64,000 nucleotides of DNA from Amoebidium appalachense (Eukaryota; Protista; Ichthyosporea): contig CAVNZM010000017.1 in assembly GCA_963693365.1 (NCBI GenBank), forward strand, positions 1,651,989 through 1,715,988. Direction: 5' to 3'. Shown here one piece after another: positions 38,701 through 41,700 of this stretch. Position numbers and translations under genes: made by a program. Under the pieces are notes generated by a model. The model was not told where the DNA came from and made no database searches. It saw nothing but the letters and a program-made list of their open reading frames with translations. The first letter of the stretch is position 1. Each line of letters opens with the position of its first letter.

Positions 38701-41700
38701 CCCCTCCCCCCTCCCCTCCCCCCATGTATGGCTTGCATTCTGCATCGTGCTATCCGTTTGTTCTTGTGTACTTCGTACTTTATGACGCATTCAACCCCCC
38801 CCCCCCCCCCCCCCCCCCTCCCCCGCCCCTCCTGCCACCCGTCCACACTTTTGTACCCAGTTCCCCTTCTCTCAACCTCTTTCCCCCATAACACTTACGT
38901 GGCTTTCGGAGACAATCTCTATCATCAATCAATAGGCATTCCGATGGGCACGAACTGCGCCGTATTCCTAGCCAACTATTATCTATTCACTTACGAATTA
39001 GAGTTTTTCGAAAAGCTAGTGCGCGACCAGCGTGCAGATATTCTTATCGAATTCCAATTCACTAAGCGCTATATTGATGATCTTATCTCTATCAACAACA
39101 ATATCGTCAGCAATCACCTTTATATCGAAGACAACACATACGGTATTTATCCCAAAAATACATTGCAAGTGAATCTCGCCGACGACGGCAGCACTGTTAA
39201 CTATCTAGATCTCCATATCCGAGCAACCAATCACGGTATCCACACAAGCATATACAGTAAACTCGATACTAGCACATTTTCTAAACTCGCTATAGTTCGC
39301 TATCCTCACATCGATTCATTTATTTCTAACACCGCTAAATATGGTATCATAACTAGTCAACTATGTAGCTATCACCGTAAAAGGCTCCTCATTGCATGCT
39401 TTCTCCATTCACGCAGCTACCCGAATATCTAGACTACTAGCTAAGGGATATGTCTACAAAAAACTCATTCATAAGACCATATCATATATTAGAAACAATC
39501 CATCGATGTATCGCGGCATTCATGGTTCATTCATTGTCAAATCCATCATTTGAAGAATTCGCATACCAATATAATCTTACTCAGACACACAATATCAACA
39601 TCATATACACACACACATGTATATCGACTACACTCCGTGCGCAATGGGCCTCGACGTATGGCGTGTCACATGAAGTGATACAACTTGGCTACCGTTTTGG
39701 CTTCCTAAAGCCCATGGGCACGATGTGAATGCTGGCTGGCCGCCAGGGGCTTACCCACCCGTTTGAACACGTTAAAGTTCCACCCGGTCAGGTGCACTGC
39801 CCCCCAGTGGCATGGGTCAAACCTATTGGTTTATTATGTGGGGTAACCCTCTAATAAAACAATAGTGGCCAATTTAAGTTCCCCCTCTATTTCTCTCTGC
39901 CTCCATGTCCCCCCCTCCCCCCTTTCCCCTTCCCCCGCCCCTCTCCTTCCCCCCCCCCCCCCCCCCCTCCCCTCCCCCCCCTCCCCCTCCCCCCCCTCCC
40001 TCCCTCTCCGTCTCCATAAGTTAGGGAGTCGGGGAGCTTTGTAGAAGCCCGGCTTATGCTCTACTTGTCTGCTTGTTTTCTTTGTTTGTCTGCTTGCAGT
40101 TTTGTAGACTCTGTTTTCTAAGATTGCTGCTCCTTGAACAACCCTGCTCGTCTTTGGCCAAGACGGGTGGACTCGCCTATTGCTGTTGAAACAAAGTATG
40201 GGTTGGGAACCACGCGCGAGAGGTTAAAGAGTCGAAACCCATGCTTTTGTGGAGGCATAGGAACCCCCCTGATGATGGGCTCTGTTCAAGTGTCTCCTGC
40301 CTGCACGCTTGAATTGTTTGATTGTGGATTTCCCACGTTTGTGACGCTTTGTTGTTGCTCTTTGTTGTCTCCTCCATATTTCCAACCCTCTAACGCATAC
40401 ACCCCCCCCCCCCCCCCCCCCCCCCCCCCCCCCCCCCCTCCCCTGGCCGGCATTTCTTGCCTGCCTTCCTTTTCCCAACCCCACTTTTCCACCGCTTCCT
40501 TCTCATTCCATCAATCTCCCCCTCTCCCGTCTCGACACACACACACACACACACACACACACACACGCGCGCACACACACACACACACACACGCCCGCAC
40601 ACACACACACACACACACACACGCACACACGCACACACACACACACACACACAGACACACACGCACACACGCACACATGCAGGTGCGCACACACACACAC
40701 ACACACACACACACACACACACACACACACACACACACACACACACACACACACACACACACACACACACACACACACACACACACACACACACACACAC
40801 ACACACACACACACACACACACACACACACACACACACACACACACACACACACACACACACACACACACACACACACACACGCACACACACACACATAT
40901 CTATCTAAAAATATAGCCGGAGCGGAGGTACACGGCGCCGACTACCATCTGATCACGGCCGATCTAAGAGATCTAGCAAATCTGGAAACACAGCTGGGTG
41001 GATGCCTTGATTTCAGGTGTGTCCTTTAATCCCATTACGTGCAAATCATTAAAGATTGACCTCATACTATCACCCGGCCAATGAAATGCCATCGTGATGC
41101 AAATCACACACACGTGTGATAGCCCCCCCCCCCCCCCCCCCCCCCCCCCCCCCCCTCCGTGCCCACCTTCACTTTATCCCATACAGTACAGGCCCATGTA
41201 TCTGGTGTGCATTCAGTACGCTTCTCCTTATTTTTGGTGGTGTGGGTGGGGGTGAGGGTGGGCGCCGCGGGGGGGGGGGGGGGGGGGGGGGGGGGGGGGG
41301 GGGGGGGGGCTCTTGACCTCCACTCACCTTTGATTTGCAGGATTCCGACACTGTTTCTAACGGAGTGTGTGTTGATCTACCTACCTCCTGACAAGGCCGG
41401 TTTGTGTCCCTTCATTTCTATCCCCCCCCCCCCCCCCCCCCCCCCCCTGGCCCCAAACCACCACCATCACCACTACCACCGTTCATGCACCCATCCATCC
41501 ACCACCACCACCTTTTTTTTTTTTTTTTTTTTTTTTGTGTGTGTGTGTGTGTGTGTGTGTGTGTGTGTGTGTGTATGTGTGTGTGTGTTTGTGCGTGGTG
41601 GTGGTGGTGGTGGTGGTGTGTGTGTGTGTGTGTGTGTGGGGAGAGGGGGGGGGGGGGGGGGGGGGATGGGAATTTTCGATCAGGCCTCAGGTGACGGAGA

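Follow-up and report, generated by a model that had tools for sequence, protein, structure and literature searches.

The window analysed here is a 64-kb stretch of Amoebidium appalachense DNA (contig CAVNZM010000017.1). A gene in it that resembles LCM methyltransferases (exons 34996-44942, + strand; Pfam LCM at 36678-36770, E 9e-6, and weakly at 41327-41410) carries in one intron, entirely in sense orientation, a nest of repeats, including two predicted ribozymes with a broken reverse transcriptase (RT) fragment of a probable Chlamys-type Penelope-like element (PLE) between them. An earlier note on this DNA had proposed that these repeats, together with a further copy at 23333-23493, belong to two families that differ in sequence, share a covarying RNA fold and bear the strands of the hammerhead core in an order that is not a circular permutation. 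The strands it named sit where it placed them in all three places, with the qualification that the copy at 37968 is 5'-truncated. The core words, their order, the covarying helices, a kink-turn signature and the anatomy of the repeats are all present in the sequence. With moderate confidence, we read the motif as a split-core hammerhead that would be active and would cut after GUU (position 40204), carried in short repeats that are likely mobilised by Chlamys-type PLEs.

Hammerhead core, covarying helices and kink-turn

The motif presents its blocks in the order GUU cleavage site (S), GAAA (G) and CUGANGA (C). This is the order of type SGC (HRIMA-1 and its variants), which was validated in vitro and found only in metatranscriptomes (Eckert 2023, PMC10085705); the earlier note had mentioned that natural non-circular permutations have been reported. 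Two strands could complete stem II, GAC(U/C)C upstream of the cut site or GGCUC just after the core (the direct option). The family 2 motif (40133-40290) and its repeat are laid out as follows.

40008..40401, + strand: family 2 repeat copy of ~390 nt carrying the motif, inside a poly-C tract (ends approximate; flanks 20/25 and 25/25 C; contig depth profile)
40133..40140, +: P1 5' strand, 8 bp with 40283-40290; three double changes versus family 1
40142..40144, +: P1b strand CCC, invariant; predicted partner GGG at 40277-40279, just after the core
40146..40168, +: 9-bp hairpin P2, immediately 5' of the upstream strand of stem II
40170..40174, +: upstream stem II strand GACUC, G10.1 being 40170; five Watson-Crick pairs with 40229-40233, one double change versus family 1
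40176..40184, +: 5' strand of P3, which corresponds to the SGC 'I' helix and is also the kink-turn C-stem; partner 40254-40261
40185..40192, +: kink-turn bulged strand, a 3-nt GUU bulge then GA; tandem G-A/A-G with GA 40252-40253; 3b:3n pair A:G
40193..40204, +: stem III strand (11 bp with 40237-40247) and GUU triplet; cut predicted after 40204, by analogy
40205..40207, +: stem I strand GGG, 3 bp with 40266-40268; one double change
40208..40225, +: hairpin in the linker that joins stems I and II, with weak support; first base variable in family 1
40229..40247, +: block G, with stem II strand GAGUC, GAAA (40234-40237) and stem III strand
40266..40275, +: stem I strand and CUGAUGA core (C3 40269, A9 40275)
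40276..40282, +: UGGGCUC, a P1b strand in the best model; the rival's direct stem II strand is 40278-40282, with a 2-nt insertion
40283..40290, +: P1 3' strand

Family 1 supplies the two other copies.

23216..23585, +: family 1 copy with motif 23333-23493 (ends approximate); stem II strand 23370-23374, kink-turn 23386-23390 with GA 23455-23456, H17 23406, GAAA 23438, core 23472-23478
37968..38235, +: family 1 copy, 5'-truncated inside P1; H17 38035, GAAA 38067, core 38101-38107

The order GUU, GAAA, CUGANGA is present in all three copies (40133, 23333 and 37968), and each has the complete hammerhead core of C3-A9 (CUGANGA), G12-A14, A15.1-U16.1 and H17. By analogy with known hammerheads, the H17 residues would be 40204, 23406 and 38035, the very positions after which the earlier note predicted cutting. 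The stems adjoining the core carry double changes (I, 3-4 bp; II, 5 bp; III, 6-11 bp), and G10.1-C11.1 is present. Neither the circular order (CGS/GSC/SCG) nor the three-way junction of Rfam types I-III is found, and Rfam gave no hammerhead among the matches listed for the whole window (150 of 223) or among those listed for two local scans. Reading GAAA...CUGANGA as a type II hammerhead was ruled out by eye, as there is no NUH or stem I between the two words.

A descriptor consisting of the S-G-C order with stems I and III finds these three sites and no others on either strand of the window. A hundred block shuffles of the window gave 11 matches in total, none with a 5-bp Watson-Crick upstream stem II, and dinucleotide shuffles of each motif gave none in 3000. 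When the core words were held fixed and the rest was shuffled, stems I and III arose in 273-321 of 20000 trials, and stems I and III with upstream stem II in 18, 21 and 22 of 20000. Among viral contigs, 59 loci chosen for the same G and C words include none that fits the descriptor. Between the families, 44 pairs in eight helices comprise 30 identical, 11 double-compensated, 2 single-changed and 1 broken, so the claim that the stems are kept by compensation holds, and all core bases except N7 are identical while the helices accumulate these 11 double changes. Because the helices and the descriptor were chosen after the motif had been seen, the shuffle and pair-count figures lean towards the model. 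Folding energy alone is unremarkable relative to shuffles (z about -1.5).

Not every element of the fold is equally firm. P1b shows no covariation, since CCC/GGG is invariant, and its pair probability is only 0.05 in pseudoknot-free folding. In Naiad consensi, judged by eye, its position is taken by other pairs. The linker hairpin is the weakest helix; in public run X1, roughly one third of the depth has another letter at its first A (23411). The 37968 copy lacks the 5' strand of the closing stem and has C-C as its fourth stem I pair. Private mismatches of the 23333 copy lie in the shared hairpin, outer stem and stem III, and the contig-majority letter restores each.

A kink-turn, which together with the Chlamys-type context goes beyond the earlier note, separates P3 from stem III. 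In each family a GUU bulge precedes a GA that faces another GA (40185-40189 with 40252-40253; 23386-23390 with 23455-23456), and all three copies bear the signature of a 3-nt bulge and tandem G-A and A-G pairs between two helices, which matches the standard definition (PMC5689011). Two of three C-stem pairs are double-changed between families. Next to the tandem, family 2 has an A:G pair, like Kt-7, and the 23333 copy has U:U, like box C/D kink-turns. The signature recurs in 535, 357 and 255 of 20000 trials in which both segments are shuffled. The kink-turn is thus conserved in both families, and a kinked shape is predicted from its sequence.

Predicted cleavage and the strand that completes stem II

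A number of observations weigh against an active ribozyme. The covariation rests on two families with whole sequence. Within families, the core is no more conserved than elsewhere, with 7 variable places in 161 nt and none in the core, an outcome expected by chance about half the time (simple arithmetic on 7/161). GUU is a slower cleavage triplet and stem I has just 3-4 bp, weak points that the earlier note had named and that hold. U17 can pair with A14 in computed folds, a local hairpin of -11.0 kcal/mol buries CUGAGGA in family 1 (only -3.4 in family 2), and the arm of the 23333 copy is not formed in ViennaRNA folding. A common family 1 variant, 23469 T>C, accounts for 18% of X1 depth and 11% of X2 depth and disrupts one pair of stem I, for which no change of the partner base is listed; 23436 T>C, at 1%, strengthens the direct stem II and disrupts the upstream one. 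There is no pile-up of contig ends at the cut site, a comparison in which contigs cannot show RNA ends or circles. Finally, one canonical PLE has a hammerhead that needed protein to cut and whose cleavage was dispensable for insertion in vitro (PMC11167929). The GUU triplet, the 3-4-bp stem I and the core-burying hairpin of family 1 argue for slow or gated activity, and family 2 is the best candidate copy for activity.

Separately, 40204 is the exact first position of three listed contig pieces (X3 records 23 and 24; X13 record 11), and one X1 joint leaves from 23406. In X13, which is only guessed to be RNA, C3>T at 40269 makes up 45% of depth (5 contigs) and A14>T at 40236 makes up 17% (2 contigs); both changes stay under 1% in the DNA runs. 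These core variants could be surviving core-dead transcripts or could come from one abundant locus.

The same weaknesses feed an alternative that we consider unlikely, in which the fold derives from a hammerhead, cuts little or not at all, and is kept as a structural signal for the RT of the element or for a host kink-turn protein. The GUU triplet, short stem I and core-burying hairpin suit it, as do the two copies lying sense in a host intron, the DNA copies that span the cut site intact, the core without excess conservation within families and the dispensable cleavage of that one PLE in vitro. A fold relieved of catalysis fits poorly with core bases that, N7 excepted, stay identical between families despite 11 double helix changes, with the retention of G10.1-C11.1 and A15.1-U16.1, and with the recurrence of the same core in the Naiad consensi seen.

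Of the two stem II options, which the earlier note had offered side by side, both can pair, but the upstream strand is better supported. Upstream GAC(U/C)C makes five Watson-Crick pairs, one of them double-changed between families (U-A vs C-G). The direct GGCUC strand needs a 2-nt insertion after A9, has one to three G-U pairs among its five and shows only a one-sided change. Upstream and direct duplex energies in the three copies are -6.4 vs -6.0, -8.7 vs -5.1 and -8.7 vs -2.7 kcal/mol, upstream being the stronger in all three. With the upstream strand, P3 pairs the segment that follows stem II with the one that precedes stem I, in the register of the SGC 'I' helix; the direct register has no such helix, and the helix is needed for type-SGC cleavage (Eckert 2023, PMC10085705). 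Three distinct cases among the Naiad consensi, inspected by eye in Craig 2021 File S5 and including an octopus pair, have the same layout of closing helix, hairpin, upstream stem II strand, P3, cut site, GAAA, CUGAUGA and closing helix; a direct stem II would reach 2 bp or fewer in each. A viroid hammerhead tolerates an extra base between A9 and G10.1 and is faster when that base is U (PMC3705267). Given the upstream strand, the 'I' register and the Naiad layout, the best model takes the SGC/CSG circle and opens it within block C, at the A9-G10.1 junction. Stem II is most likely formed by the upstream strand, which would split the catalytic strand between A9 and G10.1, and this wiring would lie outside the six published permutations.

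It is doubtful, then, that the motif is a regular type-SGC hammerhead with a direct GGCUC stem II and with GAC(U/C)C serving as an inhibitor or switch strand. The direct duplex can reach 5-6 pairs with its 2-nt insertion, and the published block rule (PMC10085705) allows the CUGANGA and stem II strands to be separated by no more than 1-2 nt, which permits it. The tested SGC-2 likewise has U and then GG after its core, according to the primer table of that paper, UGGGCUC is identical in both families, and 23436 T>C (1%) would strengthen this stem. Yet the one-sided change, the one to three G-U pairs and the weaker duplex in all three copies speak against the direct strand, which also leaves no 'I' helix in register and is impossible in the Naiad cases seen, where the outer layout is the same. 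A chance arrangement of hammerhead-like words in a self-complementary repeat, a reading that draws on ordinary folding z-scores, the lack of an Rfam hammerhead among the matches listed and the small number of independent families, is highly improbable and already largely refuted by the shuffle nulls, by 11 double changes against 1 broken pair and by the 0/59 viral loci that fit.

Repeat anatomy and Chlamys-type neighbourhood

Besides the three copies with a core, the window holds several fragments and the element that lies between the 37968 and 40133 copies.

13048..13194, - strand: 3' part of a family 1 copy, from within the P3 3' strand onward, lying in poly-C
20973..21048, +: family 2 remnant, decayed and with a broken core
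21383..21504, +: family 2 3' fragment without core
38611..38795, +: two short 3'-end fragments, family 2-like (38611-38677) and family 1-related (38725-38795), each ending at poly-C
38845..39908, +: 5'-truncated, broken PLE, probably of Chlamys type, with RT fragment 38890-39538 and 3' untranslated region (UTR)

The repeats are about 370-390 nt long, with the motif near their centre, and the additional fragments retain the 3' end and lose the 5' end. The 3' flank is C-rich (16-25/25) at 9 of 10 copies or fragments and the start is C-rich in all but two. Contigs from public DNA runs contain head-to-tail joints of 295 and 329 nt, at varying places. The repeats thus have the passenger traits of (C)n insertion, 5' truncation and head-to-tail copies. 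In public DNA runs, 2523 and 2508 contigs match family 2, and 6795 and 3936 match family 1. Run X14 gave 0 contigs for family 2 and X20 gave 0 for family 1, results that carry no weight. Summed contig depth is not itself a copy number, but in X1 the summed depth at the core (~0.8-2 x 10^5 for family 2 and 1-2 x 10^6 for family 1) is so far above that of most long single pieces (~18-40) that both families are likely present in thousands of copies or more. A consensus of X1 loose ends, with a compensated kink-turn arm and GACC/GGUC (agreement 0.69-0.8), suggests a third family, if its two ends belong together.

The earlier note had linked the motif to PLEs, and the neighbouring RT, the poly-C sites and the 5' truncation support this link. 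The RT fragment is 65% identical to P0001 (source label Amoebidium parasiticum), a protein of 938 aa whose N-terminal GIY-YIG without cysteines, CxC and DKA mark it as Chlamys type. The window copy lacks its N-terminus and, in a tree made by a quick method from which L109 was left out as too short a match, groups with P0001 on the side whose inspected endonucleases lack cysteines. Chlamys elements target (C)n and are reported to lack canonical hammerheads (Craig 2021, PMC8557442). 

Among 80 metagenome loci with a related RT, the S-G-C descriptor fits 5 on the coding strand and none on the other, compared with 8/1600 in shuffles. The five form one Chlamys-type family, on the same side of the tree as the window RT, with the motif ~130-150 nt after the open reading frame (ORF); a deletion has removed the cut-site block from a sixth member, and a seventh relative lacks a core word. 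Viral contigs searched with the RT query gave no relative. In this family a direct stem II is impossible, 10.1-11.1 would be U-A, a linker hairpin offers a competing fold and the helix that follows A9 is paired elsewhere, which makes the family similar in kind but wired differently. 

Some of this evidence also counts against the main reading. Only that one family among the 72 loci with at least 200 nt of 3' flank has the S-G-C order, with its different wiring. In the 3' UTR of the window's own Chlamys-type element the motif has no significant match: a degenerate version of the layout at 39740-39870 (+ strand), with three core mismatches, was dropped since 13 of 100 shuffles equal it. In Chlamys consensi, inspected by eye with short context, the layout is absent at the places seen of CTGATGA (45-61), CTGACGA (18-22), CTGAGGA (14-22) and CTGAAGA (31-37). 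No 3' end is common to the repeat families and the one RT element compared in the window. The motif is patchy among Chlamys-type elements, and the link of the repeats to Chlamys, which is likely, rests on target, truncation and neighbourhood, not on a common 3' end.

At L068 (6440-6900), a member of the family comprising the L064-L072 and L109 3' UTRs, a second, divergent core copy lies 290 nt downstream. By eye, a hairpin containing CUGACGA occurs twice in the 3' flank of L070, ~350-700 nt downstream of the RT match; the first copy is preceded by a GUU and shows a 5-bp pairing that resembles stem I, but there is no GAAA. Elsewhere in the window are a second broken reverse transcriptase element (3519-5375, + strand; Pfam RVT_1, E 4e-15), an intronless 592-aa ORF with hydrophobic stretches and no Pfam match (29767-31545, - strand), a 455-bp stretch with a 98% match to its own reverse complement (42618-43072) and a long exon (47486-49426, - strand) with a weak T-box match at its start, E 0.005, below the cut-off.

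Proposed mechanism and relation to known hammerheads

In the split-core model, P3, the kink-turn and stem III would form one long bent arm. The bend would let its loop, with the cut site and GAAA, fold back and reach the two strands flanking the base of the arm, pairing with upstream GAC(U/C)C as stem II and with the strand before CUGANGA as stem I. P1 and P2 would hold A9 beside G10.1 and so replace the covalent link. The fold would be complete only once the last strand had been made, so cutting would come late. Since both products would be clamped by four helices (P1, II, P3 and III), re-ligation would be favoured, and tandem transcripts could then be cut to unit length and circularised as templates for the Chlamys-type RT. 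Competing local pairings would probably keep the ribozyme slow or protein-gated.

A bolder version, which we regard as unlikely, makes the motif a ribozyme with two states, retaining both partners of stem II and forming an evolutionary bridge between the metatranscriptome SGC hammerheads and the Naiad split-core form. Nascent or intronic transcripts would carry it in the off state; an L7Ae-family or Chlamys protein binding at the kink-turn would switch it on, after which it would cut and re-ligate into a circular retroelement template.

The motif shares with type SGC (Eckert 2023) the block order, pseudoknotted stems I and II, the 'I' helix and a U after A9. Unlike type SGC, its stem II strand most likely lies upstream of the cut site and interrupts block C, and it has the additional P1, P2 and kink-turn, a linker of ~21 nt with a hairpin (~3 nt in SGC), a length of ~160 nt (at most 104 in SGC), a GUU triplet and a home in genomic repeats of a eukaryote; type SGC was validated in vitro, whereas cleavage by the motif here is predicted. 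In the PK hammerhead, which is active, helix II is likewise mostly supplied by a remote upstream strand, but its A9 runs directly into G10.1, its block order is canonical and it has no kink-turn (Zhan 2024, PMC11300833).

With the Naiad/Chlamys PLEs (Craig 2021, PMC8557442), the repeats share (C)n targets, 5' truncation, head-to-tail insertions and short non-coding passengers; some Naiad consensi, judged by eye, have the same fold at their 3' end, and the neighbouring RT is probably of Chlamys type. These PLEs were reported there without canonical hammerheads, with only 'HHR_core' and 'HHR_half_core' notes. The non-LTR retrozymes (Li 2026, bioRxiv 10.64898/2026.07.22.740005) are also short non-coding hammerhead repeats and proposed Penelope-like passengers, but they are from animals, largely tandem and excluded from introns, unlike the two intronic copies here, and the accessible part of that report mentions no permuted hammerhead. 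In open-licence PMC and bioRxiv texts we found no description of this wiring, of a genomic SGC order or of a natural kink-turn hammerhead.

The motif is likely, on this model, the ribozyme of a retroelement group reported to be without the usual hammerhead, which would explain why the Naiad/Chlamys elements seemed to lack one and would extend the fold to a Chlamys-type, probably non-animal setting. If it cuts, the hammerhead core would work without a covalent A9-G10.1 link, which the six-permutation scheme assumes to be required, and non-circularly permuted hammerheads would exist at high copy in eukaryotic genomes. The two families offer naturally compensated versions with Kt-7-like and box C/D-like kink-turns, and a natural hammerhead braced in this way would be a scaffold for protein-responsive ribozymes. 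Should the two-state reading be true, a natural protein-gated hammerhead would be common to the Naiad/Chlamys clade.

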